The notes beneath the pieces were generated by a model, which worked only from the letters and a program-made list of their open reading frames with translations, was not told the origin of the DNA and ran no database searches. The position numbers and the translations under genes are program-made. This document shows positions 1-16,864 of a DNA stretch of 64,000 nucleotides, in pieces (position 1 is the first letter of the stretch; each line of letters begins with the position of its first letter). The DNA comes from Candidatus Bipolaricaulota bacterium (GTDB lineage: Bacteria; Patescibacteriota; Patescibacteriia; UBA11705; DATKZF01): the NCBI GenBank assembly GCA_035528115.1, contig DATKZF010000002.1, positions 5,751-69,750 of the forward strand, read 5' to 3'.

Positions 1-159
1 ACAAACAAAAAAGAACGGTGATAATCCGTTCGTTAAATCAATGAACCCGTCGGAACTGTCGCACAACACCGAGTATGCGGTTACGTGAAGAAGAAATTAT
101 TGACTTTTCTTTTCAATTTTAATTGGGCTCTTTTCAATTTTTTCTCTCAGAAATGAAGA

Positions 160-191
160 GGGGCAGGATTGCGAAGTTGCAATCCTGCCCC
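160..191 (-). terminator. hairpin ggggcaggattgc-gaagtt-gcaatcctgcccc downstream of small minus-strand ORF
   Basis: Perfect inverted repeat read directly. Downstream tract is only weakly U-rich. Confidence 0.3.
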
Positions 192-210
192 GATGTGGCA
201 CTGCGTCGTG

Positions 211-417
211 CTACGGCTTGAACTCGTCGCGCGTACCGATCTGACCCGGCTGCAGGTTGGAAGGCAGGGCGTCGGAATTCGTCGCCCATACGATCTTCCC
301 CGAACTCGAGGGGTACACCGGATCGCCACCGCTGCCGATGTGGACCGACTCACCCTGTCCCTTGCTGAAGCGGACGGGCTCACCCTGCCCACTCGTGAGA
401 TGCACACTTCTTGCCAT
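211..417 (-). CDS. small GC-rich hypothetical protein (68 aa, GQGEPV/GQGESV internal repeat) inside the split attC insertion
   Basis: ORF preceded by GGAGG 5 nt upstream of the ATG (minus strand). A perfect 13-bp-stem hairpin (160-191) follows its stop. Composition differs sharply from surroundings. Confidence 0.3.
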   Translation of the reverse strand: MARSVHLTSGQGEPVRFSKGQGESVHIGSGGDPVYPSSSGKIVWATNSDALPSNLQPGQIGTRDEFKP

Positions 418-796
418 GATGGCCTCCTATCTCCGTTACGGAGTATTTACTGAAGGTACAAGGATTTACCCAAAACGAGCTGTCCTCACCCTCAGGCAAA
501 GATACATTACACCACCCTATGTAATCTGTCAATGGTAGGGTGACCCACGACGAAAGAATTGAAAAGAGCCCTAAATTAAGGAAAAAAAATCAATAATTTC
601 TTCTTCACTCCACCCAAATCCCGCTCTTGAAATTGGAGGTTTGAAGTGATAAAATAGGTTTGTTGTTAAGTGAAAGTTTGTACTGTAAATGTAGGGCGGG
701 ACTTCGCATACTCGGGAACGTTAGCCGAAATTGGGCTGTTTTAATTCCTACATTTAAGATATAATTCACTTACTAATTAACCTAACCCAAATCATT

Positions 797-1411
797 ATGG
801 AATCAAAAAGCAATGTGTGGGCAATCGCCCTCGCCATCATCATCACCGCAGTTGTTGTCGGCGGTGGAATATACTGGTGGCAACAAGACAAAGTCGTTCA
901 GGAAACACCCTCAACGGTGACAACTGATACAACAGACACAACAACTGCGGACAAAGAGGAGCCAAAAGAACCTCTAACTTATTCAACAAGTGGCGTCTCC
1001 GCCTCTGTTTCAAAAACGACAGCACCATTTGGTTACACCTCTGATCAATTGGTTTCAATGGCAGAAGAATGCGGTAATAGTCAAACGGCAAGTTATTTCA
1101 GTAATTTGGTTTCTCAATTCAGCGGTGCAACCAAAACCGTCTACAACTTCAAATATACTGGTGCTAGCCAAGAATCTGACACTTTCGTCGTAACACTTTT
1201 ACCAAACGAAGCAGGCTACTCATCGCTTAATGATTTCAAAAAGGACTTTGATCAGTGTTACGCCGGCGGAGACGCTTATCCTAAAATGCTAAATAGTAAT
1301 TGGCTCCTCTTTGTCAACTCCTGCGGAACAGGTTTTGATGATGGCTCGGGCAAACCGATTGGATGCCAAGAAGTTCGTGATGTTGTAGAACCAACGCTTA
1401 AACTGAATTAA
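797..1411 (+). CDS. hypothetical membrane-anchored/secreted protein (cassette ORF)
   Basis: N-terminal hydrophobic helix AIALAIIITAVVVGGGIYWW, then Thr/Asp-rich linker. No recognisable catalytic motif. Confidence 0.5.
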   Translation: MESKSNVWAIALAIIITAVVVGGGIYWWQQDKVVQETPSTVTTDTTDTTTADKEEPKEPLTYSTSGVSASVSKTTAPFGYTSDQLVSMAEECGNSQTASYFSNLVSQFSGATKTVYNFKYTGASQESDTFVVTLLPNEAGYSSLNDFKKDFDQCYAGGDAYPKMLNSNWLLFVNSCGTGFDDGSGKPIGCQEVRDVVEPTLKLN

Positions 1412-1425
1412 AAAAACAGCCCAAC

Positions 1426-1554
1426 ATCGGCTAACACGCAGTATGCGGTTTCGCTCCCGTTGGTCGCTACACCCATATTTGGCAGTGGTAAGCTCCTCCG
1501 TCGCAAATTTTACCACTGCCAAACATCGCATACTGCGGAACGTTATGCGTAATC
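1426..1554 (+). repeat. attC-like structured repeat 1
   Basis: ggctaacacgcagtatgcgg ... ccgcatactgcggaacgttatgcgtaat. Inner hairpin tttggcagtggtaag/ttaccactgccaaa. Conserved cacccatattt module. Confidence 0.6.
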
Positions 1555-1969
1555 TCTTATTTTCCTTTGTTGTACCACCAAAGTAACCTGAGCACTTAAC
1601 GGGCTTTCCTTCGTTTAGCGAGGAAAAAACAAACTGAACAATTGCTTTGCAACTGTATATAACAAATACTAAACGGTTCGTTTCACTCTCCCAAATTTTT
1701 GCCAATGAACGGGGGATTTCTTTGCTAAATGTAACATCTAAGTAGTTACAATAAAAAGATTTAAATACTCTAGAGTACCTACCATTAACTATGAACTCAA
1801 AAACTACTATTAATGGAATTAAATCTTTAATCTTAGTAGTTATGGGTATGATGCTTTAAACGCATCACATTGTCTTTTCTCTTCTTAAAAATTTTTGAAG
1901 TTGGTTTCTCCTGTGGTGTTCATTTCTGATTAAAACCACCTATAAAAAAATAACTAGGAGGCATTAAAA

Positions 1970-3589
1970 ATGAAAACCGAAACAAGAATAATAACTGCAG
2001 CACTTCCCTTTGTAAATAATATCCCTCATCTGGGTAATATTATTGGTAGCCATCTTCCGGCAGACATATTTGCAAGATTTTGCAGATTGAAGAATTATAG
2101 AACCATTTTTGTTGGAGGTACTGATGAGCATGGCACAGCAATAGAGTTTGCTGCACAAATCCAAAAGAAAACACCAGAACAATTATGTACTGAACTATAC
2201 CAAGAACATAAAGAAATTTATGATTGGTTTAAGATTAGTTACGACAATTTCTCCAGAACTTCAAGAACAATCCATCATGAATTAGTCAAAGACTTTTTCC
2301 TTAAATTATACAAAAACGGATTTATAACAGAAAAAACCATCAAAATTCCATTTTGCCTAAAATGTAAAAAAGGATTAGCAGATAGATATATTACGGGAAT
2401 TTGCCCTCACTGTAGTTATGAGCAGGCAAATGGAGATCAATGTGAAAAATGTGCTACTTTAATTGATCCAATAGAATTAATTAATGCTCATTGTTCTGTC
2501 TGCAAATCAAAAGAAGTAGAATTTAGAGATACTAAACATTTATTTCTGGATTTAAGAAGTATTTCTGGAGATATTGAAAAATGGATTGATAATAATAAAA
2601 ACCTCCGACAACAAGTTAGGAATCTTGCAAAGGGATGGTTAAAACAGGGAATCCAAGAAAGATGTATTACTAGAGATTTAAAATGGGGTGTTCAAGTTCC
2701 TTTAGAAGAATATAAAGACAAAGTATTCTACGTTTGGTTTGATAATGTGATTGGATACATTTCTGCAACTTATGAACTTTTAGGTGAGGAAGCACTTGAA
2801 CTTTGGAAAGATAAAAATGTAAAGACATACTATTTTCTTGGAAAAGACAATATCCCTTTCCATACTATCTTTTGGCCTGGACAAATAATCGGACAAAAAG
2901 AATTTGTCTTGCCTTATAATGTAGTTGGCTACCAATATCTTAATTTTGAGGGACAAAAATTTTCAAAAAGTAAGAAAATAGGGATATTTTCAGATCAAGT
3001 AAAAAATAGTAATGTTCCTCTTGATTATTGGAGATTTTATTTAACAAACATTCTTCCAGAAACCAAAGACACTGATTTTTCAGTTGAAGATTTTCAAGAA
3101 AGAATCAATAAAGAACTTATTGGCAACTTTGGAAATTTTGTAAACAGAACCTTAAATTTCATCTGGAATAAGTTTGATGGTAAAGTACCCAAAATCTCTA
3201 ATATTGACGAAGAACTAGAAAAAGAAATCAATCAAAGAATAAAAAAGATTGAGGAATGTTACGAAAAATGTGATCTTCGGGAAGTGCTGCAGGAAATTCT
3301 AAAATTATCAGATTTGGGAAACCAGTATTTCAACAAAAAAGAACCTTGGAAAACAGGTGATAAAGATTGCTTAGCATACTGCTATGAACTTTGCAGAATA
3401 CTATCAGTATTGTTTTCTCCAATAATTCCAGACTCAACTGAGAAATTAAGAATTTTGTTGAATACTGAATATAAAGAGTTGAAAATAAACGGAAGGGAAA
3501 AGACAATTAACAAACCTGAAATCTTATTCAAGAAATTAGAGAATGAAGATTTGGACGAGTTTAAACTTAAAGCAAAGAAATCCCCTTGA
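1970..3589 (+). CDS. metG: methionyl-tRNA synthetase (no C-terminal tRNA-binding extension)
   Basis: Class I aaRS HIGH-type motif HLGN, KFSKS (KMSKS) motif, two Cys knuckles CPHC...CEKC and CSVC. AGGAGG RBS 7 nt upstream. Confidence 0.9.
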   Translation: MKTETRIITAALPFVNNIPHLGNIIGSHLPADIFARFCRLKNYRTIFVGGTDEHGTAIEFAAQIQKKTPEQLCTELYQEHKEIYDWFKISYDNFSRTSRTIHHELVKDFFLKLYKNGFITEKTIKIPFCLKCKKGLADRYITGICPHCSYEQANGDQCEKCATLIDPIELINAHCSVCKSKEVEFRDTKHLFLDLRSISGDIEKWIDNNKNLRQQVRNLAKGWLKQGIQERCITRDLKWGVQVPLEEYKDKVFYVWFDNVIGYISATYELLGEEALELWKDKNVKTYYFLGKDNIPFHTIFWPGQIIGQKEFVLPYNVVGYQYLNFEGQKFSKSKKIGIFSDQVKNSNVPLDYWRFYLTNILPETKDTDFSVEDFQERINKELIGNFGNFVNRTLNFIWNKFDGKVPKISNIDEELEKEINQRIKKIEECYEKCDLREVLQEILKLSDLGNQYFNKKEPWKTGDKDCLAYCYELCRILSVLFSPIIPDSTEKLRILLNTEYKELKINGREKTINKPEILFKKLENEDLDEFKLKAKKSP

Positions 3590-3693
3590 GATAGTCTCGC
3601 TTTGCTCGTGAAATAATAGGTTCATTGGCAAAAACTACGGAAAGCCCTGTGCTCAGGAAAATAAGAGACTTCTCCGTTCCCTTCGGTCACTAC

Positions 3694-3824
3694 GACCACG
3701 CTGCGCTCTCCTCCTTTGGTCGTCGGGACGCATAACAGCGATTATCCGAGAAATCCCTCGGCTCGGGATTTCTCCAAATTTTGGCTACGCCAAAACTTCG
3801 GATAATCGCGATGTTAGGTGAAAT
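3694..3824 (+). repeat. attC-like structured repeat 2 with upstream conserved module ccacgctgcgctctcctcctttggtcgtcggg
   Basis: gcataacagcgattatccgag ... cggataatcgcgatgttaggtgaaat. Inner hairpin ttttggctacgccaaaa. Confidence 0.6.
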
Positions 3825-3943
3825 GCCCTTATTGGCTACTATTAATATGATTTTCCAATGGTTGATTTAAGCACTTTTATTAGTAAATGGATTATTATGA
3901 TAAACTAAATTCACTTAATTTATAAATTTTTAAGTTACCAATT

Positions 3944-5149
3944 ATGTCTAATACCGACCACAGAATCAAAGCTTATAATCCATCGGGTTTTTTTTGGATG
4001 AGTTTACTTTTTAGCCCTATGTGCGTTTTGATTATGAAATATCAAAACAGCAAAACTTTACCTAATGGCAAACTAATTAGGAAGCAAACAAATAAGTATT
4101 TATGGATTTTTATTTTTATACTTCTTGTGATTTTTGCATCCATTTTTTGGGAATCTTACACTTTAGCAAAGTGGGCGTATGATCAAAATAATGCACTTCT
4201 TTTAATCGAAATTAATACTTGGGGTTTTGATTTACATTCTGTTAAAACAGCGCTAAATGAATCTGCAAAACAATCACCTATTTTAAATGCTGCTATAAAC
4301 ATGAGCGATTACAGATCAATTTTCAATTTTATTGCCTGGATAATTTTTGCTTATTTTCTTGGCACCTCAGCTAAAACAACAGAATTGCCTGAATTCAATA
4401 AACTTAAGGAAAGCAAGAAATTGTACTCAAAAGCTCCGCTCCTTCCTATTATTCTTGGTATTGTAATTTTAGTAGGCGTTAATTATGCAATGGTTTATAG
4501 TTCCGCCTACAGTGCAAGCTATACCGCCAAGTATTTTTCACCAAAAACCAATGATTTGTTTGCGGAAGAAGAAGTTCCTCCAACAGAAGAAGGTAATTTA
4601 AATGAAATCACACCTCCATCAATTACCGATGATTCAGATAATGATTTAGTTATAAAAGAAGACGTTACTCCAACAGAAGAAAGTAATGTTTCAGTTAATA
4701 ATATTCAATTAAGCAATAAAACATTTACACTAAAATATCCAAAAGATTATCAATTCGAGAAAATTGATGACAGAAACTATTTAATAAAAAAAGGAGGGAA
4801 TGAACTCTGGAAAATAAACTTCAGAACCCTTGCTGATGTTGAAGAGTTAGACAAAAAATGCCCGCCAGATGACTGCATGCGTAACGAAGTTCCTCTGATA
4901 CAAACTGATCGGTTTGAATATGAAATGAAATTATGGAAGGTTAAGGCAGATGCACAAAAGGATATTAATAAGGTAGATTTTGAATTTGATAGCTATCCAG
5001 TAGGCCACGATGTTGGTTATTTTCATTCATTTTCAAAATATTTCGATGATGTCAGAGTTGCATTTACAGGATATGACCCCAGTGATACTGGCTCAGCTTC
5101 ATTCGATTTTATGGCCGAATTTGGCTTGTTGATAGAATTCACTTACTGA
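3944..5149 (+). CDS. hypothetical integral membrane protein
   Basis: Several predicted TM helices in the N-terminal half, then an acidic Pro/Thr/Glu linker and a C-terminal globular region. Shares a cassette with the next ORF (no repeat between them). Confidence 0.45.
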   Translation: MSNTDHRIKAYNPSGFFWMSLLFSPMCVLIMKYQNSKTLPNGKLIRKQTNKYLWIFIFILLVIFASIFWESYTLAKWAYDQNNALLLIEINTWGFDLHSVKTALNESAKQSPILNAAINMSDYRSIFNFIAWIIFAYFLGTSAKTTELPEFNKLKESKKLYSKAPLLPIILGIVILVGVNYAMVYSSAYSASYTAKYFSPKTNDLFAEEEVPPTEEGNLNEITPPSITDDSDNDLVIKEDVTPTEESNVSVNNIQLSNKTFTLKYPKDYQFEKIDDRNYLIKKGGNELWKINFRTLADVEELDKKCPPDDCMRNEVPLIQTDRFEYEMKLWKVKADAQKDINKVDFEFDSYPVGHDVGYFHSFSKYFDDVRVAFTGYDPSDTGSASFDFMAEFGLLIEFTY

Positions 5150-5179
5150 AAGCTACAAAATTAACAACTTATAAGTAAA

Positions 5180-5899
5180 ATGAAATTAGAACATTACCTA
5201 CAGGAAAACTTTAAAGAACCAAATTTATCTGCGCTGCCCAGATATTTAAAGCTGTCTATTTTTTGGCCTAATTTTTTTAGAAAATTGATCAATAGCTCTG
5301 AATTTAAAGGCTACACTGGTAAATTGATAGGCATAGCTATTCTTTTGGTTGAATTTGGAGTTATTTATTATGTTGTGAATTTATTTTCCATTCTTTTTGT
5401 CTATGGATACTATTCTTTGATTTATTTTCTTGATGGAGAGTTGTTGAACTCTTATAAAAGCATTGAGCATTTAAAACATTATCAAAATTACGTATTTTAC
5501 TGGCTCAATTATTTATTTAGCTTACCGAGTAATATTATTTTACAAAGCCTGCTTTATACTGCGATTGTTTATGCAGAGACTGCCGTTGGTTCGTTCCTAG
5601 TTGCAATTTGGCTTAGGAATAATAAGGACATAAAATTTAAGAAAAAAATAGTTGCTAACTATCCGAATGTTGATTCTTTTAAAGCTTTTTATTCTAAAAA
5701 CGACTTTAAAGAGGCGGCTAAAATCCTCAAGGAATACAAAAGTGCGACGTATTCTCAATTAATCAAAAAGTATCCCAAAAAGATTATCGATTTATTAGTG
5801 CTCGGTGATCACATTTCTTTTGTTGGCGGTAAAAAATTAACCAGAATGGCGTGCATTAAATGTATTGAAGAGGACAAAGATGAGTGTAATTGTAAGTAA
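5180..5899 (+). CDS. hypothetical membrane protein with C-terminal Cys cluster (CIKCIEEDKDECNCK)
   Basis: Hydrophobic helices at residues ~45-140. 30 bp downstream of previous ORF. Confidence 0.4.
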   Translation: MKLEHYLQENFKEPNLSALPRYLKLSIFWPNFFRKLINSSEFKGYTGKLIGIAILLVEFGVIYYVVNLFSILFVYGYYSLIYFLDGELLNSYKSIEHLKHYQNYVFYWLNYLFSLPSNIILQSLLYTAIVYAETAVGSFLVAIWLRNNKDIKFKKKIVANYPNVDSFKAFYSKNDFKEAAKILKEYKSATYSQLIKKYPKKIIDLLVLGDHISFVGGKKLTRMACIKCIEEDKDECNCK

Positions 5900-5944
5900 A
5901 TACTAAAAGTGCTTAAATCTTTGCTTGAGAAACAATAAGGGCAC

Positions 5945-6100
5945 AACACCTAACAAAGTTTGTGGGGTTCATAAATTTCGCTAATTTGATGCTTAAATAG
6001 CGGTACCAAAATTTATTCTCCCAAATGCTTCGGCGGTGAGTCGCTCCGCTCCAAATTATACCGCCTCGCACTTCCCACAAACAGAAACGTTATACGACAT
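5945..6100 (+). repeat. attC-like structured repeat 3
   Basis: cacctaacaaagtttgtgggg ... cccacaaacagaaacgttatacgacat. Internal ctccaaatt and gcttcggcgg hairpin. Confidence 0.55.
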
Positions 6101-6147
6101 ATGACTTCGGGGGCACATTTATATATTACAAAGTTTATTTTTAAAAT

Positions 6148-6909
6148 ATGAAACCCATTTACATTAAAAAAGAGGTCGCACTCAAAAAAGTTTCAGCAAA
6201 ATACAAGCCAATTGTTAAAGATGTTAAATCTGAATTGCTGAAATTTTCTGATAAGATTCACAGCATTTATTTGTATGGAAGTGTTGCCACAGGAAAAGCA
6301 AAATCTCCAACCTCTGATTTAGATTTAGTTGTGGTTCTAAAAGCAAAACCAACATCAAAACTTAAAACTCAATTAAAAGAATTAGAAAATTCACTATCAC
6401 AAAAATATCAAAAAATATTCAGAGAAGTTGGTTTTGCAATCACTTACAAAAATGAAGTTTTAAGAGGCAAAGAAGCATTCGGTTGGAGATTTTTTCTCAC
6501 AATTTTAAGCGTGAAAATTTTTGGAGATAATCTTTTTCAAAAAGAAATGAAGTTTAGCCCGACAAATAAATTAGCAAGAAATCTGCATTCAGATGTTGAT
6601 GAAAATATTGAAGAAGCAAAGAAAAAAATCAAATCTTCAAACGATCAAGAGGCTAAACTTCAAATAAAATCAATAATGAAAAAGATTATCAGGACAGCCT
6701 TCTCTATTGTCATGCAGGATGAGAATTATTGGACTACTGATCTTGATGAAATGACAAAAATTTTCACTAAACATTATCCTGAAAAGAAACAACAAATAAA
6801 TGCTGTTTTGAAATTAGCAAAAAGCAAATCGCCAGATAAAAAGAGTGCGACCTCAATTCTTAATAATTTTGGTAAATGGGTTTCATCGGAATATTTTAAA
6901 AGAGTGTAA
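6148..6909 (+). CDS. nucleotidyltransferase, AadA/ANT(3'')(9)-like aminoglycoside adenylyltransferase fold
   Basis: N-terminal Pol-beta NTase motif LYGSVATGKAKSPTSDLDLVVVL (hG[GS]...DhDh) and ~150-aa helical C-terminal domain, as in AadA. Classic integron cassette gene class. Confidence 0.6.
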   Translation: MKPIYIKKEVALKKVSAKYKPIVKDVKSELLKFSDKIHSIYLYGSVATGKAKSPTSDLDLVVVLKAKPTSKLKTQLKELENSLSQKYQKIFREVGFAITYKNEVLRGKEAFGWRFFLTILSVKIFGDNLFQKEMKFSPTNKLARNLHSDVDENIEEAKKKIKSSNDQEAKLQIKSIMKKIIRTAFSIVMQDENYWTTDLDEMTKIFTKHYPEKKQQINAVLKLAKSKSPDKKSATSILNNFGKWVSSEYFKRV

Positions 6910-6911
6910 TG

Positions 6912-7093
6912 TGCCCCCTGCGTCATACGCTGCGCTCCACTTCGTTACGCTTGGGGACGCTGCGCTTTCGTCGCTACGCTCCTCACCCTCGTATAACAAG
7001 GATTATGAGGAAAATGGCTCGGCTCGCCATTTTCCCAAATTTGCTCCACTTCGTTCCGCAAACTTCTCATAATCCTGACGTTATACGCAATTC
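6912..7093 (+). repeat. attC-like structured repeat 4 with upstream GC-rich module
   Basis: cgtataacaaggattatgagg ... cctcataatcctgacgttatacgcaat. Upstream cgctgcgctc module shared with repeats 2 and 5. Confidence 0.55.
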
Positions 7094-7240
7094 AAAAAAT
7101 ATTTTTCTTAAGGTAAAATGATGATAGGCTTTCTAAAAGGAATAAATTTGATTTTTTCTTTATTATAGAGGGGGATAATATTGTGTTTTCTCCGCTACAA
7201 AAACGATTTATTTATAAATTTTAGATTCTAAACATAAAGT

Positions 7241-8046
7241 ATGGAAACAATAATTAGAAAAGATTCGGAAATTAAAGGGAAACACTCGCTGTTTTTTGTG
7301 GAGTTCATGGAAATGAGAAAGCTGGAGTATATGCGGTAAATAAAATTCTAAATAATATTGAAATCAAAACAGGAATTGTTTATTTTGTTTTTGCTAATCC
7401 TAAGGCTATTGAAGAAAACAAAAGATTTATTGATAAGAATTTAAACAGATGTTTTTTTGATAATCAAAATGGTGAGTCTTATGAAGAAAAAAGAGCAAAA
7501 GATTTAATTAAAATTTTAGAATTATCCGATGCCCTTCTTGATGTTCATGCAAACAATAGTCCAGAGACCATACCATTTGTAATTACCGACAATGGTTTTG
7601 ATGTAGTCAAAAATATGAATTTTGAAATTATTGCTACTGGTTTTGATAATCTTGAACCTGGGGCAACTGATGGATTCATGAAAAACAAAGGGAAAATAGG
7701 AGTTTGTATAGAGTGTGGATATTCTGGCAAAAGCGAAGAAAATATAGATATAGCATACAATTCGATTATTCAATTTTTACAACATTTTAATGCTATAGAC
7801 CACATAATCCCAAGCTATAATATCAAACAAAAAGTATTACATGTTGATAAAGTTCAAAAAGTAACATCAAAAGAGTTTAGTCTAATAAAGACATTTAAGG
7901 ATTTTGAAATAATTAAAAAAGGTTTTGTTATTGCTAAAGACGAAATGAATGAATATTCTGCTGACAAGGATAGAGTAATTTTATTTGGAACGCCTGGAAA
8001 GCCGATTGGAGCAGAAGCATATATTTTAGGTACTTGGATAGAATAA
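7241..8046 (+). pseudogene. succinylglutamate desuccinylase/aspartoacylase (AstE/AspA, M14-like) family gene, frameshifted
   Basis: ATG frame gives METIIRKDSEIKGKHSLFF then a stop. The +1 frame continues VFCGVHGNEKAGVYAVNKIL (HGNE zinc-ligand motif) through to DHIIPSYNIKQ...ILGTWIE. The break falls in a T6 homopolymer at 7292-7297. A T7 run would restore one ORF. Confidence 0.6.
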
Positions 8047-8173
8047 GGAGTTTTGAAAATGAAATTCACCCCCAACCCCTCTTTCATTTTTCAAAACGGA
8101 AAAAATCAAATTTATAAGAAATGAAGAAAGCATATCATAATGAATAAGAACGAAAAATATTTTTTGAACTCAA

Positions 8174-8315
8174 GCCACGCTGCGCTCTCCTCCTTTCAGT
8201 CGTCGGGGCGTATAACAAGGGATATACGGTTCAGCCCTCGGCTCGAGCATCACCCAAATTTTTCTTTCGCTTACGCTACAGAAAAACTTCGTATATCCCA
8301 AACGTTAGGCGAAAT
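8174..8315 (+). repeat. attC-like structured repeat 5 with upstream module ccacgctgcgctctcctcctttcagtcgtcgggg
   Basis: cgtataacaagggatatacgg ... cgtatatcccaaacgttaggcgaaat. Confidence 0.6.
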
Positions 8316-8396
8316 TGCTTTTTGCTTTTACAAAGAAGAAGGCCACCGACGATGTCGCCGATGGCCTTGTGGATCTGGGGTGCGGGCGGCTCCTCG

Positions 8397-8552
8397 CTAA
8401 CCCTTCTTTGACCAGGGAAAGTCCGAAGCGAACCAGATCAGGAGGATGATGGCCCAGAGTGGGCTCGCTGACTGTGTGATGTACATCCCATAGCCGATGA
8501 GTCCTGCGCCACTGACCAGAGCCACGGCGCCACCTACGTCCTTCGCGTTCAT
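8397..8552 (-). CDS. small hydrophobic peptide (51 aa, two predicted TM helices), GC-rich, reverse-oriented in cassette
   Basis: Minus-strand ORF MNAKDVGGAVALVSGAGLIGYGMYITQSASPLWAIILLIWFASDFPWSKKG with GAGGT 6 nt upstream. Below the 60-aa ORF-track cutoff. About 60 % GC versus about 30 % around it. Confidence 0.3.
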   Translation of the reverse strand: MNAKDVGGAVALVSGAGLIGYGMYITQSASPLWAIILLIWFASDFPWSKKG

Positions 8553-8754
8553 GAGGTACCTCGCTAGTTGCGAAAAAACAGATCCCCAACCATGAGGAGC
8601 CGCCCTTTCTGGTTGACAGAAAAACTACTCCAAACCACGTTTGGACAATGACTTTAACATATTACTACATCTAAGTCAACCCCTCACCGAGCAAAAAGCA
8701 ATTTGTTCGCTCCGCTCACATTTGCTCCCGCTGGTCGCAAATTAAAAAAGCAAC

Positions 8755-8891
8755 TACGCCTAACACTGCATAGCCGGCTCGTTCTTTTCCGAAAGAGCTC
8801 ACCCAAATTGCCTCCTCAACAAATATGGTGTAAAATTCTACCACACTTATCTCGTCGGCAACTTCGGCTATGCAGGAACGTTAGCTGAAAT
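8755..8891 (+). repeat. attC-like structured repeat 6
   Basis: cgcctaacactgcatagccgg ... ccggctatgcaggaacgttagctgaaat. Inner hairpin tggtgtaaaattctaccaca. Confidence 0.6.
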
Positions 8892-8939
8892 AGCCTCAAA
8901 TCCTTTCTTGTTTGTAGAAACTCACTAAATAGTAAATAT

Positions 8940-10133
8940 ATGCAAATTATCAAAAAAATATTCAACGGTAAAACCAGCAAATCAGTGTTAACTATGGGCA
9001 TTGTTGCAACATTTCTCCAAATATCAATAGCCGCTTATGCTGTAATTAAGCCAATAAGTCTGAAGAGTGATTTAACACTTTTTTATGGGATTGTAGTTTT
9101 AGAGCTAATATTTTTCCCAATAAGTCTTTCAATAATTTTTTCTTACCTCCTAAATAAAGTTAAGTGGCTTGATAAAAAATCATTTCTGATCACATTCCTT
9201 GTTACGTCTTTATTTATTGTAACCGCTGTAATTTTGGGACAAATGGCTTGGGAACATATCATTCCTTGGGAATTTTGGCTTTTTTATAAATATATAGAAA
9301 TACCTCTAGTCTTTACAGGACTAATTGGCATTCCCTTGATTTATCTTTTGGGATATTCCGGTTGGACAGTTTTCACCTTTGTAATGATAATTGGAATATT
9401 TGTTACCGCTTTTTTGGTTGCTGCTCTTTATTCCTACACAACCCATCTTGCAATCAATAAGAAAAAACAATCTTTTAGAATAATCCTTACAGTAGCCCTC
9501 ATTTTATCTATTGGATGGGGGATATTTCAGGGAGTAAATGAAGCATATGTAAAAAGATTATCTCTAAAAGGTGAGTGTGCTGCAGGACTTAACTTTTACC
9601 AGTGTGACAATTACAGTAACCTTGGAAATAGTTACCACAGATTAAATGATGACATCTATTACAACCTAGGCTATGTAAACGCTGTAAAAATCGACGATGT
9701 CGACATTAATTCCTTTCAAGTGATCAATATCGATTCACTGCGTGTGTCAATTGCCAAAGATAAATACAGAGCATATGCCAATGGGGAAATAATACCAATA
9801 AACAATATTGATTCATGGAAAATCATGGAAGGAGTAGATAATTGGGGCTACTCATCAGACGATAAAAATGTATTTTTCGGAACAAATATTCTAGACGGTG
9901 CCAATCCAGAAAGTACATTTCTCATTGAAAACAGATATGCATGCAATAATGATTTTGTTTACTTTGGAGATAAAATTATTGAGGACGCAGATCCAAGCTC
10001 CTTTGTAACACTGAATTGTGGCGGCTACACAAAAGACGATAAATCATACTATTTTTATGGAGAAAAAATTATTGAGGATGAAACTGGATGCAGAGGTCAA
10101 GATATAATTGACAGCAAATGTGAAATAAAATGA
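8940..10133 (+). CDS. hypothetical polytopic membrane protein with C-terminal extracytoplasmic domain
   Basis: About 6 hydrophobic helices in the first 200 aa. C-terminal 190 aa are hydrophilic and Asp/Asn/Tyr-rich. Confidence 0.45.
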   Translation: MQIIKKIFNGKTSKSVLTMGIVATFLQISIAAYAVIKPISLKSDLTLFYGIVVLELIFFPISLSIIFSYLLNKVKWLDKKSFLITFLVTSLFIVTAVILGQMAWEHIIPWEFWLFYKYIEIPLVFTGLIGIPLIYLLGYSGWTVFTFVMIIGIFVTAFLVAALYSYTTHLAINKKKQSFRIILTVALILSIGWGIFQGVNEAYVKRLSLKGECAAGLNFYQCDNYSNLGNSYHRLNDDIYYNLGYVNAVKIDDVDINSFQVINIDSLRVSIAKDKYRAYANGEIIPINNIDSWKIMEGVDNWGYSSDDKNVFFGTNILDGANPESTFLIENRYACNNDFVYFGDKIIEDADPSSFVTLNCGGYTKDDKSYYFYGEKIIEDETGCRGQDIIDSKCEIK

Positions 10134-10153
10134 CAAGAGATTCGAGGCTACAT

Positions 10154-10244
10154 CAGCTAACAGCGTATATCTGGCTACACTTCGTTTCGCCCATATTACT
10201 CCCTGCGGTCGCAACATCAGATATGCGCGAACGTTAGGTGAAAT
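10154..10244 (+). repeat. attC-like structured repeat 7
   Basis: cagctaacagcgtatatctggc ... cagatatgcgcgaacgttaggtgaaat. Confidence 0.6.
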
Positions 10245-10302
10245 ATTTTTTGAAAATTTTTTAGATTTTTAGTATTTTTAATAGGCTTTAAGTAATATTA
10301 CT

Positions 10303-10746
10303 ATGAAGAAGGAAACTATTCGCCAAATTCAAAGAAAAGTTATTAGATTGTTGCGTAAAAACAATAATAAACCTCTTTATCTGTCATCAACAGACAATTG
10401 TAGTGAAATTGCACGGTTGGTTGGTTGTTGGATTTTTGACAAATTACCTCAGGCTAAAATATATATTTTAAAAGGTAAAAATATACTAGGCACAAAAAAA
10501 TGCCATGACATTTTAGCAGTAGAATACGACAAGCGCATTTCCCTTATCGATCCAACAGTGTGGCAATTTTTCAAGAATAAAAAGAGTATTCTTATTAAAA
10601 CAACAGACAATTTGACGAATGGTTTATTTGAAGCCAGCAAAATATATCGCAGCAAATGGAAAGTCTCAGAAATATTTAAAAAGAATAATTATAAAAATGA
10701 TGAACTTAAGAAAATTGTAGCTTCAAATATTAAGGACTTAAAATAA
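10303..10746 (+). CDS. hypothetical protein (basic, Lys-rich)
   Basis: ORF only. No recognisable motif. Confidence 0.4.
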   Translation: MKKETIRQIQRKVIRLLRKNNNKPLYLSSTDNCSEIARLVGCWIFDKLPQAKIYILKGKNILGTKKCHDILAVEYDKRISLIDPTVWQFFKNKKSILIKTTDNLTNGLFEASKIYRSKWKVSEIFKKNNYKNDELKKIVASNIKDLK

Positions 10747-10817
10747 AAAACGTTATAACACCAGAGAGAAAGCCTATCAAAAATCAAAATTAAGGAACAA
10801 AAATTTTCAAAAAATAC

Positions 10818-10845
10818 AACACCTAACACGCACTTACCAATACAG
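10818..10845 (+). repeat. attC-like 5' remnant (cacctaacacgcacttacc) fused to truncated kinase fragment
   Basis: Only the R''/L''-like half is present. No matching 3' half. Confidence 0.35.
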
Positions 10846-10853
10846 TTGATATT

Positions 10854-11090
10854 TTGGATTTGTTTGATGCAGTTTTTTTGCTTCAAATTTCTGCCGATAC
10901 AATAAGAAAGAGATTGATTGAAAGAACAGAGGTAGGAGCATTCGGTAAATCGGATGATGAAATAGCTGATATCATGAGATGGAAAGATGAATTTGTCAAA
11001 ACAATGATAACGCGTGGCGCAATATCAATTGACGCAGAGAAGGGTGTAAACGAAGTTGTTGAGGAAATTTTATTAAGGAGATTAAAATAA
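10854..11090 (+). pseudogene. C-terminal fragment of a P-loop kinase paralogous to 11141-11695 (truncated)
   Basis: LLQISADTIRKRLIERTE...EVVEEILL parallels FLDASPEVIRQRLTGRY...QVAELILN of the downstream kinase. No Walker A region is present. Preceded by an attC remnant. Confidence 0.45.
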
Positions 11091-11140
11091 TTTAACATTA
11101 GGCTGACTTATAGCAAAGCAGTCTTAATGCAAAAAAAAAT

Positions 11141-11695
11141 ATGAATAAACTCTATTTTATCAGCGGAGTGAATGGGGTGGGAAAAACCTCAATTATGCCT
11201 TTCCTAAAGACATTGTTGCCAAGTAATCAATTTGAAATACATGATTTTGATGAAAGAGGGGTACCGGAAAAGGCTGATGGTAATTGGCGTATTTCTGAAA
11301 CTAAACACTGGGTAGATTTAGGAGTAGGATTGGGATCAAGAGATAAAAACGTTATCGTTTGTGGATTTGTAAAACCCGCAGACTTTCAGGAAATGCTATC
11401 GGATGATTCACTTGGCATCACTTTGATTTTTCTCGATGCAAGTCCGGAAGTTATTCGTCAGCGTTTAACTGGTCGATATACAAAAGACGGTTATTTTGAT
11501 GAATCCCAAATGGTAATTGGCAAGCCAATTGATGTTTTTATTGATGGGAATATTTATATTTCAGGGCAAATGAAAAAAATATTTGAAGAATTAAATTGCT
11601 CAATCGTTGATACATCAAATTTAAGTCCAGAAGCAGTTGCAAGGCAAGTGGCTGAATTAATCCTAAATAATTTTAAAGTTTATATGGCCCCATAA
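11141..11695 (+). CDS. P-loop NTPase, small nucleotide/nucleoside kinase-like (AAA_33-type)
   Basis: Walker A GVNGVGKTS at residues 9-17. Size and layout typical of small kinases. Exact substrate unknown. Confidence 0.6.
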   Translation: MNKLYFISGVNGVGKTSIMPFLKTLLPSNQFEIHDFDERGVPEKADGNWRISETKHWVDLGVGLGSRDKNVIVCGFVKPADFQEMLSDDSLGITLIFLDASPEVIRQRLTGRYTKDGYFDESQMVIGKPIDVFIDGNIYISGQMKKIFEELNCSIVDTSNLSPEAVARQVAELILNNFKVYMAP

Positions 11696-11821
11696 AGGTG
11701 TTTTGGGCTTCGGGCATTCACCCCTTTAATTCCCCTTTGCCTTTCGCCCAAAACAGAAAAAGAAATTTGAAAATTTTTTAAAACAATTCCGACTGCTGTC
11801 GGAAAAAAGAAAAGGAATACA

Positions 11822-11931
11822 TCAGCTAACAACGAGTATCCGGTTACGGCTTTTATCCAAAAGCCTCCACCCAAATTTTTCTTCCGCTACGCTACAGAAA
11901 AACTTCGGATACTCGTAACGTTAGGCGAAAT
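11822..11931 (+). repeat. attC-like structured repeat 8
   Basis: cagctaacaacgagtatccgg ... ccggatactcgtaacgttaggcgaaat. The 3' arm has an extra GT relative to the 5' arm (unpaired bases). Confidence 0.65.
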
Positions 11932-11950
11932 AACACAATAAACATCTCTT

Positions 11951-12268
11951 ATGAAAAAGTTGAAATTTATTCTAAGCATAATTTTTTTAGCTTTCATTGC
12001 AATTTCAATAATTTCTTACAATTATTATTCGTTAATAGATAATCAATCGAACCATACGGGGTTAGATTTAATGAAAGTTAAAATATTCTATCTAGGATTT
12101 TCATTAATTGCGATTGTTGTAGCGCTAATAATAAAATCAAATAAAAAAGCTAAAAAAAATTTCATTATTTCCAGTATATTAGGATTAGTTTTCATTTTTA
12201 ACATTTGGATATTCGAAAAAACAGAAATTATGTTGTATTACGAAGATTGGGTTACCTGCTGCATGTAA
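11951..12268 (+). CDS. small membrane protein (3 predicted TM helices)
   Basis: Hydrophobic 105-aa ORF. Single-ORF cassette. Confidence 0.4.
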   Translation: MKKLKFILSIIFLAFIAISIISYNYYSLIDNQSNHTGLDLMKVKIFYLGFSLIAIVVALIIKSNKKAKKNFIISSILGLVFIFNIWIFEKTEIMLYYEDWVTCCM

Positions 12269-12284
12269 AATTATTGTGTTTCAT

Positions 12285-12396
12285 CGCCTAACAGCGTATA
12301 AACGGTTCCATTCGTTCACCCAAATTGACCAGTGATAAGCCTTCGGCTAGTATATCACAGGCCAACTTCGTTTATGCGCCGGACGTTACGCAAAAT
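12285..12396 (+). repeat. attC-like structured repeat 9
   Basis: cgcctaacagcgtataaacgg ... gcgccggacgttacgcaaaat, with imperfect stem. Inner hairpin ccagtgata/tatcacagg. Confidence 0.55.
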
Positions 12397-12416
12397 TCAA
12401 ATAACCCAAAATTATT

Positions 12417-13088
12417 ATGAAAAAACCACATTACCTTTCACCAGTTAGTAAAATATTTTCAGCTATCGCTGGCAGGACGGAACCAATGAAAGTAAGGATT
12501 GAAAATTATAATTTCGTAGTATTACCAAAAGTATTTCCATCTCATGAATTTAGAGCAGCAAAATGTCTCCCAAAAAGTATTAAAGAAATAATAAAAAACA
12601 AAACAGTACTATATATGGGTTGTGGTTTTGGTATGGTGGGTATTTATTCATTACATCATGGTGCGACAAAAGTTATACTAGCAGACATTAACCCGTATGC
12701 TGTTGAAAATGCAGAAATAAATAAAAAGTCACACAAATTCAGTGATGATCAAATAATGATTTACGAGAGTGATTGTTTTGATAATATCCCAAAACAGACA
12801 TTTGATGTATTAATATTCAACCCACCGTTTAATACTAATGGTAAACCTACAAGCGACGTATTAAGAAAATCTCTATGGGATCCGGGTTTTACTTCATTAA
12901 AAAAGTTCCTGGGAAGTGCCAAGGACTATATGAATATTAGCAGTAAACTCCTGATATACTACTCAGACAGAGGTGATATTAAAACGTTGGAAAAATTATT
13001 TGGTCAATATTTGTATAGATGGAAGCTTTGGAAAGTGTTCAATAAAGACCAAAAATTTGACAATAGGATCTATGTTCTTATTAAATAA
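12417..13088 (+). CDS. class I SAM-dependent methyltransferase (NPPF motif; HemK/RsmC-like small MTase domain)
   Basis: Gly-rich SAM motif LYMGCGFGMVGI, acidic ILADIN, and catalytic DVLIFNPPF. Confidence 0.65.
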   Translation: MKKPHYLSPVSKIFSAIAGRTEPMKVRIENYNFVVLPKVFPSHEFRAAKCLPKSIKEIIKNKTVLYMGCGFGMVGIYSLHHGATKVILADINPYAVENAEINKKSHKFSDDQIMIYESDCFDNIPKQTFDVLIFNPPFNTNGKPTSDVLRKSLWDPGFTSLKKFLGSAKDYMNISSKLLIYYSDRGDIKTLEKLFGQYLYRWKLWKVFNKDQKFDNRIYVLIK

Positions 13089-13125
13089 AATTATATTGGT
13101 AAATCCTATTAGGTTTTTTGAACTT

Positions 13126-13255
13126 CGTCTAACACGGCGTACACGATATTCCCTCGTTCACTCCGGTGGCCACTCGCTAGTCAGTCTCTCCGGCCGCGAG
13201 TGTACCACCTCCGTTCGCTCGGGACATCGCGTGACGCCGGAACGTTGCACAAAAT
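13126..13255 (+). repeat. attC-like structured repeat 10 (last in array)
   Basis: cgtctaacacggcgtacacgatattccc ... gggacatcgcgtgacgccggaacgttgcacaaaat. Confidence 0.5.
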
Positions 13256-13263
13256 CGCTCGCT

Positions 13264-13299
13264 CCGCCTGCCGGCAGGCAGGCAGGCTCGTTTTTTTTT
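13264..13299 (+). terminator. GC-rich palindrome gcctgccggcaggcaggcagg + T9: rho-independent terminator at array boundary
   Basis: Hairpin followed by a 9-T run. The GCAGGCAGG motif recurs at 29.56, 32.52-32.6 and 33.85-33.9 kb. Confidence 0.5.
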
Positions 13300-13418
13300 A
13301 ATTGCCAAAAACCGCATATATTGATAAAATTCAATTGGAGTTTGATGCCGGTTGCGAATCATTTCAATAAAAATGCTTTTAGAGAGCGCACAAGCAAAAG
13401 CGCCAAAGGAGGACGATC

Positions 13419-13625
13419 ATGGGCTTTGGGACCAGACTGCCGACGAGCAACGACCCGCCGCCATCAGCTAAGGGCAAGAGTCCGTGGCTCGGGGCAAACG
13501 AAGAATTTGGCCTTGACGAATTCTGCCTTGTGATCAACCGCAAAACAAGGCAATGCGAGGGTTGCAAACGAATAACTCATGTTCGTCACCTGGACGCCAA
13601 TGGAAGATGCCCTGACTGCCGATGA
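13419..13625 (+). CDS. small zinc-ribbon protein (CEGC ... CPDC)
   Basis: AGGAGG RBS 6 nt upstream. Two CxxC pairs 17 residues apart. Confidence 0.5.
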   Translation: MGFGTRLPTSNDPPPSAKGKSPWLGANEEFGLDEFCLVINRKTRQCEGCKRITHVRHLDANGRCPDCR

Positions 13626-13639
13626 CAAGGAGGATTCTC

Positions 13640-13680
13640 CAGCAGGGATTTCGCAACGAAATCCCTGCTGTCTAAAAACA
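13640..13680 (+). terminator. hairpin agcagggatttcgcaacgaaatccctgct followed by an A/T-rich tract (few T)
   Basis: Perfect 12-bp stem directly after the stop of the zinc-ribbon ORF. Confidence 0.5.
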
Positions 13681-13716
13681 TTTTCATTAGAGATAAATTT
13701 CAATAATATGCGCTTC

Positions 13717-14127
13717 ATGATCTGCGGGAGCATGCATTTTGCCAAAGAAATGCTTGAGGCTCAAAAAAGTTTGCAGGGACTGGGACATGACGCCAAAATT
13801 CCTTCAGACACGCTTGAGTGTTTGGAAAATCCCGAGCTGAACATGGATTTTGATTATTGCGTCAGAACTCAAATCGATAAAAAGGATTTTCAGCAAGTGG
13901 CTGACAGCGACGCGATTTTGGTTTTGAATTATCCGAAAAACGGCATCAAAGGCTACATCGGTGGAGCAACCTTGATGGAAATCGGCCTGGCCAGGCACTT
14001 GGGCAAAAAAATCTTTTTACTGCATGACATCCCTTCGGAAGACGAACTAAGATACGCGCTTGAAGTGCGCCTCACCTCCCCCGTTGTCTTGGGAGGCGAT
14101 ATCAAAAAAATAAATCAATTTATCTAA
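13717..14127 (+). CDS. nucleoside 2-deoxyribosyltransferase-like / DNPH1 (Rcl)-family protein
   Basis: N-terminal MRFMICGSMHF resembles the FCGSIRGG nucleotide-binding motif of DNPH1/NDT-fold proteins. Start moved to the internal Met after the terminator hairpin (the track ORF began at 13579). Confidence 0.45.
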   Translation: MICGSMHFAKEMLEAQKSLQGLGHDAKIPSDTLECLENPELNMDFDYCVRTQIDKKDFQQVADSDAILVLNYPKNGIKGYIGGATLMEIGLARHLGKKIFLLHDIPSEDELRYALEVRLTSPVVLGGDIKKINQFI

Positions 14128-14134
14128 AAACAAT

Positions 14135-14548
14135 ATGACCGAAAGACCCAAAGTCGGAGTCGGAGTAATCATCATCAAAGACGACAAAGTTCTTCTCGGC
14201 AAAAGAAAAGGCGCGCTCGGCCAATGCACTTGGTGTTTCCCGGGCGGGCATTTGGAATACGGCGAATCTTGGCAGGAATGCGCCAAGCGCGAAACCATGG
14301 AGGAAACCGGCATTAACATAAAAAACATTCGCTTCGCTTCAACCACCAATGATATTTTTCAATCGGAAGGCAAGCATTACATTACCATTTTCATGGTGTC
14401 CGATTTTGATTCGGGGGAAGTTAAGGTGATGGAGCCCGAGAAATGCGAGGGATGGGAGTGGTTCGAATGGGATCAATTGCCCGAGCCGCTTTTTCTGGCC
14501 GTTAAAAATTTACTTGAAATCGGCTTTAATCCGTTCGATGAGAAATAA
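14135..14548 (+). CDS. NUDIX hydrolase
   Basis: Nudix box GGHLEYGESWQECAKRETMEETGI (Gx5Ex7REUxEExGU). Confidence 0.8.
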   Translation: MTERPKVGVGVIIIKDDKVLLGKRKGALGQCTWCFPGGHLEYGESWQECAKRETMEETGINIKNIRFASTTNDIFQSEGKHYITIFMVSDFDSGEVKVMEPEKCEGWEWFEWDQLPEPLFLAVKNLLEIGFNPFDEK

Positions 14549-14621
14549 AACAACGGCCAAAGCCTTCGTGACTGATAAAAACAAATTAAAATAAAAGCCA
14601 ACAATCCATAACAAAAAACTT

Positions 14622-15152: not shown

Positions 15153-15217
15153 TTGCTTTTAGCGGCATCGTTTGCGAAAAAACGCCACCGGGGATAAAAT
15201 GAAAAGCATCAATATTT

Positions 15218-15764: not shown

Positions 15765-15852
15765 CTGAACCAGCAAGGCTTTAATATTGCCCTCTCCCCC
15801 ATTTTCTACTATACTGGAAGCAATGAACGCGAAAAATTCGCCTTAAAATCCT

Positions 15853-16557: not shown

Positions 16558-16627
16558 TCCCTGTTTTAAAATGAAAAAAGTCTGCCGGTGCAGCAGACGG
16601 GGTGAAAAGGTTGGAGTGTTGCTTGGT

Positions 16628-16831: not shown

Positions 16832-16864
16832 GACTCGGTCTCCTTTCCTCTGAAAATATGTAAA

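Follow-up and report, generated by a model that had tools for sequence, protein, structure and literature searches.

A probable sedentary integron-type cassette array with structurally non-canonical attC sites in a Patescibacteria-like genome

In integrons, the choice of the attC strand is explained by extrahelical bases that are contacted by an additional domain of the integrase IntI; such contacts were reportedly described by MacDonald and co-workers in 2006. This additional domain currently defines the integron integrases, also for their computational detection. Integron arrays are known as sedentary chromosomal integrons, such as the superintegron of Vibrio cholerae with its V. cholerae repeats (VCR), and as clusters of attC sites without an integrase (CALINs), following the IntegronFinder definitions (Cury et al. 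2016). In Archaea, integrons have been described in 75 genomes, mostly as CALINs, and the six IntIs found there all possess the additional domain (Ghaly et al. 2022, PMC9668308). The present work concerns a stretch of 64,000 nucleotides (the window) of contig DATKZF010000002.1, whose first 13 kb had been read, in an initial annotation made from the sequence alone, as a chromosomal integron or a CALIN. We conclude that the region 60–13255 and the 5.75 kb to the left of the window very probably form the distal portion of a cassette array of integron type, sedentary and chromosomal, in a genome resembling those of Patescibacteria. Within the assembled sequence, the array is a CALIN. Its attC sites belong to a class that is structurally non-canonical and very widespread.

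The array resembles the sedentary integrons by its length, by the common orientation of its mostly single-gene cassettes, by the similarity of the attCs within the array, by the YTAAC and GTTA core sites with a crossover at G|TT, and by covarying palindromic arms that fold preferentially on the bottom strand. Further shared traits are small reverse-oriented genes with promoters of their own, pseudogenes and decayed sites, as well as a divergent integrase plus attI at the array head, here seen in relatives. Unlike in the sedentary integrons, the L box is free of extrahelical bases, the spacer has 1 nt on one arm and 3–4 nt on the other with the surplus on the L'-R' arm, and a conserved branched core (CACCCAAATT ... 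AACTTCG) replaces the free variable loop. One attC core also differs very little between phyla and domains, the arrays are hosted by Patescibacteria, DPANN archaea, Halanaerobiales and others, and the integrase of the relatives is devoid of the additional domain.

Extent, junctions and structure of the attC sites

AttC-type repeats had been noticed in the gaps of the first 13 kb, and 11 co-oriented imperfect palindromes of 90–155 nt were indeed found there (r1–r11). The window is part of the ENA contig k141_3262450 (138,008 bp), and its position 1 lies 5,750 bp from the contig end. Three further sites (a1–a3) on this left-hand segment bring the total to 14, all on the plus strand and restricted to the intergenic gaps of the array. 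The sites and the landmark at the distal end are as follows.

L001 23–147, 4122–4289 and 5610–5716, plus strand: the three sites left of the window
60–731, plus strand: attC r1, interrupted by a 522-bp insert, read from the sequence; R'' CGCACAAC at 60–67, L'' at 69–79, L' plus R' at 701–727, crossover G at 720
1428–1553, plus strand: attC r2
3729–3824, plus strand: attC r3
5947–6100, plus strand: attC r4
6990–7091, plus strand: attC r5
8209–8315, plus strand: attC r6
8757–8891, plus strand: attC r7
10154–10244, plus strand: attC r8
11823–11931, plus strand: attC r9
12285–12396, plus strand: attC r10
13126–13255, plus strand: attC r11
1656–1756, about 10749, 10810–10817 and about 11092: decayed copies or half-sites
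13266–13287, plus strand: GC-rich hairpin followed by a T run, directly 3' of r11, marking the distal end of the array, with housekeeping genes beyond

A covariance model built from the copies was used to search both strands of the window. It found all the intact copies, on the plus strand, and no site on the minus strand or in 13256–64000 (50.7 kb). A search of the whole window against Rfam at gathering thresholds gave no match, and a scan of the window for tRNA and tmRNA genes found none. The contig terminates within a1, and a second assembly (Logan SRR8554643) breaks at the same point; therefore, the integrase and attI are not recoverable for this genome. The initial annotation had predicted both to the left of position 1, which is the side where they lie in the relatives; here this side holds another 5.75 kb with three more attCs and then the contig end. 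No tyrosine recombinase was present among 20 open reading frames (ORFs) of the flank that were tested, and the APH-like protein encoded in the leftmost cassette had no relatives in a metagenome scan.

The sites are bounded by an 8-nt R'' box (NNNN-TAAC) at the start and by an 8-nt R' box (GTTA-NNNN) at the end, which is followed by GAAAT. All the intact sites start with NNNN(T/C)AAC and end with GTT(A/G)NNNN. The fit to GTTRRRY, first thought to be exact, is so for four of the 11 R' boxes; the others are one position off, and the family consensus is GTTA[T/G][A/G][C/T]. At 11 of the 13 junctions, the R' box of a site was the exact reverse complement of the R'' box of the following site, a match seen only once in 14 between the two boxes of the same site. 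None of 200,000 permutations reached the observed count of junctions (p < 5e-6). The interrupted site r1 follows the same rule, its R'' box matching the R' box of the preceding a3 at seven of eight positions, including the rare GTTG/CAAC variant, and its R' box matching the next R'' box at all eight. At 47 other loci, 44 of the 86 consecutive R'/R'' pairs were perfect, for 5.2 expected and a maximum of 13 in 2,000 shuffles, and same-site pairing of the R extensions failed in 20–49 of 105 sites. This complementarity between R'(n) and R''(n+1) implies that the units were once circles closed on the R''/R' box and were inserted at G|TT by site-specific recombination, which strengthens the integron or CALIN reading.

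The R'/R'' pairing is by itself silent on which attC core travels with which gene, and one near-identical core, present in more than 25 genomes, was used instead. In this core the R'' box and the sequence upstream are constant and the R' extension varies from genome to genome. The crossover is therefore on the R' side, as in known integrons. Each unit begins at the TT of an R' box (G|TTANNCGAAAT), includes between one and four genes and closes with its own attC, which terminates in the G of the next R' box.

The arms had been described as different in every copy and still complementary, and this was borne out as true covariation. When sites were defined by their conserved motifs with no pairing imposed (123 cases, 59 distinct L' sequences), the L' 11-mer was complementary to the upstream arm at 10 or more of 11 positions in 62 of the 123, compared to 3.7% when L' was swapped between sites. 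In an alignment of 105 sites, itself fitted to the covariance model, the L stem was 97.4% paired, with compensatory changes in 10 of its 11 pairs; none of 500 shuffles reached the observed score, and slid controls were 31–41% paired.

Of 187 distinct sites, 176 folded more stably as the bottom strand, which was favoured over the top strand by 3.1 kcal/mol on average (DNA parameters, Wilcoxon p = 4e-30). The origin of this bias lies in the conserved modules (CCCAAATT and AACTTCG on the top strand), which pair together, AAATT/ACTTC covarying with ATATT/ACATC. At the middle position of the pair, 99 of 105 sites have A.C on the top strand, which corresponds to a G.T wobble on the bottom strand only. 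In the bottom-strand fold, the R box (CGNNTAAC/GTTANNCG) is followed by an asymmetric internal loop of 1 nt by 3–4 nt, a perfect L stem of 10–12 bp and a three-way junction, the second hairpin of which is closed by AAGTT/AATTT with the conserved G.T, on the bottom strand only. Surplus bases are found only between the R and L boxes, with 1 nt on the 5' arm and 3–4 nt, usually (G)AAC, on the 3' arm, and in 187 of 204 sites this 3' spacer on the L'-R' arm exceeds the 5' one. With the L box defined as the conserved TAT-CGG part of the stem, the spacer becomes 5 nt versus 7 nt, partly paired.

The attC of aadA2 (class 1 integron, pFBAOT6) was read as a control. It shares the R'' CTAAC/R' GTTAG pair, and it is likewise an imperfect palindrome that follows the gene on its 3' side and contains the cassette boundary in its R' box. 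It differs from the present sites by an unpaired spacer of 5 nt versus 6 nt and by two extra bases (C and A, top strand) within its L box, on the 5' arm. With the model of the present family, it scored 5 bits (E about 8–10). The 2–3 unpaired bases of the 3' arm, compared in the initial annotation to the extrahelical bases, are thus real; they lie in the R-L spacer on the L'-R' arm and are not the equivalents of those of attC_aadA2, which are in the L box on the R''-L'' arm. Folding of the bottom strand, which had been proposed as a check, gave the expected stability and no extrahelical G or T in the L box. The recombination presumably uses the folded bottom strand. The top strand as the active strand, an idea prompted by the surplus bases on the opposite arm, was not supported, given the crossover on the R' side and the better folding of the bottom strand.

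Related arrays and their integrases

An exact pattern derived from the conserved modules was searched in a set of species-representative genomes. It matched at least 120 genome stretches, for a chance expectation of about 3 as estimated from pattern length and database size. The hosts were mostly Patescibacteria (Kerfeld-, Uhr-, Magasanik-, Falkow-, Peregrini-, Moran-, Woese-, Saccharibacteria and others). Further matches were in contigs binned as Woesearchaeota, Methanosarcinales and Methanobacteriota, in scattered other metagenome-assembled genomes (MAGs), and in Halanaerobiales and Clostridia, including the isolates Halanaerobium kushneri ATCC 700103 and Paramaledivibacter caminithermalis DSM 15212. 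The covariance model revealed co-oriented arrays in most of the loci selected with the pattern.

An attC core of about 98 nt (TAACAAGGGATATACGGTTCAGCCCTCGGCTCGGGCTTCACCCAAATT...AACTTCGTATATCCCTAACGTTA) was near-identical in r6 (8209–8315) and in more than 25 loci (L003, L031, L063, L066, L032 and others), with differing R-box extensions. The genome labels of these loci include many classes of the Candidate Phyla Radiation (CPR), Woesearchaeota, Methanosarcinales, Gammaproteobacteria and Bacillota. Three cassettes of the array recur in other genomes, with different neighbours each time. The cassette of a 204-aa protein (window 701–1544) showed 84% identity over 859 bp to L127 9909–10759, in a different array, and the homology stops at the G|TT of r2. 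The methionyl-tRNA synthetase (MetRS) cassette (1659–3726) was 93.6% identical over 2,071 bp to L025 3909–5979, binned as Woesearchaeota, where its attC is cut down to about 25 nt. The four-gene cassette located left of the window (L001 233–3975) was 84% identical over 3.7 kb to L119. The near-identical attC core and the 94%-identical MetRS cassette, found on bacteria- and archaea-binned contigs, point to an exchange of cassettes between co-occurring lineages, subject to binning errors. The array of L127, on a 698-kb contig, comprises at least 12 sites of the same class; genes for IS110-family and rve-type transposases lie within it (13180–15802 and 18288–18842).

Searches with IntI1 (a query sequence with 100% identity to the IntI1 annotated in over 5,000 plasmids) and then with a family hidden Markov model (HMM) showed that 15 of the approximately 120 attC-selected loci encode a tyrosine recombinase of about 270 aa. 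At 12 loci it was divergent at the cassette 5' end, which is the classical layout, and at two Bacillota loci it was co-oriented. Among the loci selected solely by similarity of the integrase, all four that could be evaluated (L124, L125, L130, L131) possessed attCs directly upstream with the integrase in divergent orientation, and at two more the contig stopped less than 520 bp upstream of the integrase. A conserved attI-like site was present between the integrase and the first cassette (TTCGTATA-N7-G|TTANNNGAAAT), often with one or two extra copies of TTCG(T/C)ATAA. The 3' arm of attC has the same TTCGNATA motif as its conserved part.

The IntI-specific insertion, expected in the integrase by the initial annotation, is absent from the integrases of the relatives. 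In the alignment with IntI1, a gap of about 45 residues falls exactly at the additional domain, and the C-terminal KSPL aligns with RSPL of IntI1. The NCBIfam model NF040815 ('site-specific tyrosine recombinase/integron integrase', the XerA model) gave 202–244 bits. Compared to solved structures, the short integrase matched IntI4 of V. cholerae (2a3v) with 161 bits in two stretches, XerA of P. abyssi (4a8e) with 159 and XerD of E. coli with 78. Its N-terminal domain is PF13495. More than 7,500 homologues were found at E <= 1e-20; the best 120 of them were mostly 70–75% identical, with named organisms that were almost all Patescibacteria, and were annotated as generic recombinase, XerC/XerD or 'integron integrase'. 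The archaeal XerA and XerC/D are similar in size (about 270–290 aa), in the lack of an additional domain and in their HMM scores (NF040815). In contrast to them, the short integrase is found at the head of a cassette array beside an attI-like site, has the PF13495 N-terminus and the C-terminal KSPL, and is equally similar to IntI4.

By analogy with these arrays, the recombinase of the present one would be an IntI/XerA-like protein of about 270 aa, encoded divergently at the cassette 5' end beside an attI-like site. It would lack the additional domain; correspondingly, this attC class is devoid of extrahelical bases. We infer that the short integrase performs bottom-strand recombination, and the present array may still be active. 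The archaeal integrons of PMC9668308 similarly comprise attC arrays in MAGs of Nanoarchaeota/DPANN and other archaea, with attCs and cassettes shared across domains, and the loci binned here as Woesearchaeota and Methanosarcinales carry the present attC class. Unlike in the archaeal integrons, the recombinase adjoining the Woesearchaeota-labelled array L066, of 266 aa, is without the additional domain.

In L130 (labelled Wolfebacteria), attC arrays of the same orientation are present on both sides of the short integrase (3863–9046 and 12079–16890), and a block of three genes (semialdehyde dehydrogenase, 2-hydroxyacid dehydrogenase and DUF7736) plus attCs is duplicated on either side. In L123, L129, L131 and L001, the contigs stop inside an attC or within 0.3–1.6 kb upstream of the short integrase. 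Short-read assemblies seem to be broken by such arrays, so that the linkage of integrase and array would be hidden in MAG surveys.

Competing explanations and significance

Several results weigh against an integron-type array. Neither an integrase nor attI was found in the window or in the adjoining 5.75 kb to the left. Comparison of related strains for cassette variation, another check proposed initially, showed no gain or loss among eight same-strain contigs carrying the flanking NUDIX gene, the neighbours being identical in all; the three cassettes with different neighbours in other genomes are the positive part of that comparison. Extrahelical bases are absent from the L box on the R''-L'' arm, the L stems being bulge-free helices, and so is the roughly symmetric unpaired spacer of a canonical attC. 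The short integrases of the relatives score 186–227 bits with TIGR02249 (integron integrase), below its cut-off of 265, in two stretches that skip profile positions about 178–236. They are devoid of a domain stated to be necessary for IntI activity (Messier and Roy 2001, as cited in PMC9668308). Finally, some taxonomic labels on short MAG contigs may be binning errors.

Among the other explanations, the one that survives best is that the array is a fossil, namely a true CALIN which lost its integrase, no longer recombines and is kept as a stretch of accessory genes. We consider this unlikely, though it deserves to be taken seriously. The decay visible in the array fits such a history, with one frameshifted pseudogene, one attC carrying the 522-bp insert and three decayed or truncated sites, as does the L127 array, in which at least 12 sites accompany the IS110 and rve genes with no integrase within 6.5 kb of the first site. 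The gene order is also identical in all eight contigs with the flanking gene; these contigs, however, possibly represent a single clonal population. Against a fossil, ten of the 11 window sites are intact, with perfect L stems and matching R boxes, and the head of the array is unseen, all the assemblies breaking within the array 5.75 kb upstream.

A second explanation would be that the sites are duplex Xer/dif-type sites, like the pdif of Acinetobacter plasmids, worked by a housekeeping Xer-like recombinase, and not single-stranded attCs. The features of the recombinase give some weight to it, namely the lack of the IntI additional domain, the archaeal XerA family as best NCBIfam model and the high conservation across many Patescibacteria. 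The attC 3' arm (TTCGNATA-N8-GTTA) also looks like a core site with two arms, and the attI-like site mirrors it. Known pdif modules are short duplex sites of about 28 bp, in alternating orientation and with no hairpin requirement. The present sites are, on the contrary, structured palindromes of 90–155 nt with covarying arms, in one orientation throughout, and selection on a duplex site would not favour the bottom strand in nearly all of them through a conserved, strand-specific G.T. In addition, the recombinase gene is always at the array head, and its product is as near to IntI4 as to XerA. This explanation therefore appears improbable.

The last one, palindromes or terminator hairpins comparable to repetitive extragenic palindromic (REP) sequences or miniature inverted-repeat transposable elements (MITEs), spread by transposition or copying with no cassette logic, would account for copies that are intergenic, palindromic and partly conserved in sequence and for a core near-identical in many genomes, and is contradicted by the results to the point of being extremely improbable: instead of the dispersal in both orientations which the initial annotation had named as the mark of such elements, there is one strand, one block and no copy in the 50-kb flank, with related loci co-oriented as well, the R'(n)-R''(n+1) linkage is left unexplained, the array heads of relatives have an integrase and an attI-like site, and whole cassettes recur with boundaries at G|TT.

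Beyond the reading of this locus as part of an integron-type array, we tentatively propose that it represents a class of integrons that is very widespread and has so far gone unrecognised, in Patescibacteria and DPANN archaea and also in Halanaerobiales and other anaerobic Bacillota; the chances of this broader proposal seem to us slightly below even. The class would combine an IntI/XerA-like integrase of about 270 aa, without the additional domain, and attCs co-evolved to dispense with extrahelical bases, having instead an asymmetric spacer, a conserved three-way junction and the bottom-only G.T. The IntegronFinder 2.0 paper does not mention CPR lineages, and the searchable full-text literature, subscription journals being outside its coverage, held no account of integrons in Patescibacteria or of an IntI without the additional domain; such absence from the literature is not a proof of novelty.

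If the proposal is true, many 'CALINs' from CPR, DPANN and other archaeal MAGs are in fact complete integrons, and the class is either an ancestral-like Xer-IntI intermediate or a parallel solution to the recognition of a single-strand site. This large natural family displays the whole of the cassette logic, from junctions at G|TT and covarying bottom-strand hairpins to an attI-like site and a divergent integrase, and yet has neither the additional domain nor the extrahelical bases. If functional, it would constitute a second mode of recognition of a folded single-stranded recombination site and would bear on the origin of integrons from Xer-type recombinases. Integrons would then be common in ultra-small symbiotic bacteria and archaea, where the current tools report only integrase-less clusters. 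The two cultured hosts, H. kushneri ATCC 700103 and P. caminithermalis DSM 15212, make the question experimentally approachable.

Cassettes and flanking DNA

The gene content of the array, from left to right, is as follows.

Left of the window: four-gene cassette (APH-like kinase, PHP, nucleotidyltransferase, GT4 glycosyltransferase)
Left of the window: two-gene bPH_2 cassette
86–607, minus strand: GC-rich insert of 522 bp occupying the hairpin-1 position of r1; terminal inverted repeats imperfect, about 50 bp, read by eye
532–504, minus strand: promoter-like site of the insert, TTGACA-17-TAATGT, read by eye
417–211, minus strand: 68-aa ORF of the insert, with a GGAGG ribosome-binding site, no Pfam family
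191–160, minus strand: terminator of the insert
721–1542, plus strand: cassette, 204-aa protein of no assigned function (797–1411) plus attC r2
1543–3813, plus strand: cassette, decayed attC (1656–1756), MetRS (1970–3589) and attC r3
3814–6089, plus strand: two-gene cassette, ORFs of 401 aa (3944–5149) and 239 aa (5180–5899), attC r4
6090–7080, plus strand: cassette, Pol-beta-fold nucleotidyltransferase (6148–6909; Pfam Polbeta, NTP_transf_2) plus attC r5
7081–8304, plus strand: cassette, 5' leader (7081 to about 7240), frameshifted AstE/AspA pseudogene (7242–8046), 3' tail (8042–8208), attC r6
8305–8880: cassette, GC-rich 51-aa hydrophobic ORF (8552–8397, minus strand), terminator (8368–8339), then attC r7 (plus strand)
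8881–10233, plus strand: cassette, DKNYY-family protein (8940–10133) plus attC r8
10234–11095, plus strand: two decayed cassettes, read from the sequence
First decayed cassette: 147-aa ORF at 10303–10746, R'-like AACGTTA at 10749, R'' CACCTAAC at 10810–10817, the remaining attC deleted
Second decayed cassette: truncated 78-aa ORF at 10854–11090, ending in a degenerate R' AACATTAGGCTG at about 11092
11096–11920, plus strand: cassette, P-loop kinase-like protein (11141–11695), 3' tail (11694–11822), attC r9
11921–12385, plus strand: cassette, 105-aa hydrophobic protein (11951–12268) plus attC r10
12386–13244, plus strand: last cassette, HemK/MTS-type methyltransferase (12417–13088) plus attC r11

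The ORFs had all been taken as co-oriented, which does not hold for two small GC-rich genes on the minus strand, at 211–417 and 8397–8552, each with a terminator. These are the plausible genes of their segments; the minus-strand ORFs 147–407 and 8305–8589 were rejected as wrong-frame readings of GC-rich DNA. The 522-bp insert in r1 may represent a MITE-like element, or else a gene that the variable arm of an attC tolerates. The cassette at 8305–8880, the sole plausible gene of which encodes the 51-aa peptide, resembles the reverse-oriented toxin-type cassettes of sedentary integrons. An 11-bp inverted repeat is present in its flanks (TTGCTTTTTGC / GCAAAAAGCAA).

The full-length MetRS passes the equivalog cut-off of NF001100 (600.7 bits versus 587). 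It is possibly an extra copy serving as an inhibitor-resistance paralogue, or else the sole MetRS. Members of its 90% protein cluster are labelled Woesearchaeota, one being from a Tara dataset. The decayed attC of the same cassette scores 13.8 bits with the covariance model. No family matched the 401-aa and 239-aa ORFs of the two-gene cassette at 3814–6089. The protein encoded at 6148–6909, initially likened to AadA, is a generic Pol-beta-fold nucleotidyltransferase; it reaches only 36 bits with ANT(3'')-II, for a cut-off of 400, and an 'AadA' resistance cassette was rejected. The frameshifted pseudogene was confirmed and assigned to the AstE/AspA family, the frame 7279–8046 matching AstE_AspA_cat (4.7e-22) and the ATG at 7242 lying in a different frame. 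The truncated gene described as fused to a half-site agrees with the reading of the sequence at 10810–11095, where the R'' box at 10810 is fully complementary to the R' box of r8.

Several non-coding segments of the cassettes are conserved. The 3' tails at 8042–8208 and 11694–11822 begin at the stop codon and extend into the attC, with 82–94% identity in 10–15 other genomes, where they may follow different genes. Taken together with their attCs, the first (with r6) shows 82–94% identity in more than 15 other genomes and the second (with r9) 88–92% in about ten. Each tail opens with a long hairpin with a C-rich loop (TTCACCCC..CCCCT) and is possibly a terminator, an insulator or a protein-binding element. 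The cassette 5' leader (GTTATACGCAATTCAAAAAATATTTTTCT...GATAGGCTTTC...GAGGGGG) is found at 7081–7240 and at L001 136–235, before two different cassettes, and also in L061, L071, L075 and L100. This shared leader could be a promoter or a translation-initiation module. A module of about 35 nt (CCACGCTGCGCTCTCCTCCTTT..GTCGTCGGG) is located just 5' of three attCs, at 3698–3731, 6927–6960 and 8177–8210, and precedes the same attC type in many genomes. The degenerate CGCT(A/T)CGCT-like repeats before it resemble the loop of hairpin 2. A promoter scan of the array was uninformative, with 48 sites for 46.2 expected.

Beyond the array, the flank encodes DnaK, DnaJ, MreB, cysteinyl-tRNA synthetase, a class II aminoacyl-tRNA synthetase, MurJ, DNA polymerase III delta', acetate kinase, Dus and CorA, and the array is therefore chromosomal. 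A Patescibacteria-like host, guessed initially, agrees with the nearest named homologues of DnaK (73–77% identity), which are all from Patescibacteria; the NCBI label of the MAG is 'Candidatus Bipolaricaulota'. At 52 kb, the GC content rises from about 0.40 to about 0.65, and the segment 52000–64000 corresponds to very long Cys-rich repeat proteins encoded on the minus strand, with tandem repeats of 66, 132 and 156 nt and a MopE-type metal-binding motif. The plus-strand ORF of 2439 aa at 52022–59341 was rejected as a shadow of the minus-strand coding sequence. Because of this jump in GC content and of the Bipolaricaulota label in the face of a Patescibacteria-like DnaK, the contig may be chimeric or the block foreign. 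A 283-aa protein with a BRO-N domain, of phage or mobile-element type, is encoded amid the housekeeping genes at 37390–38241.

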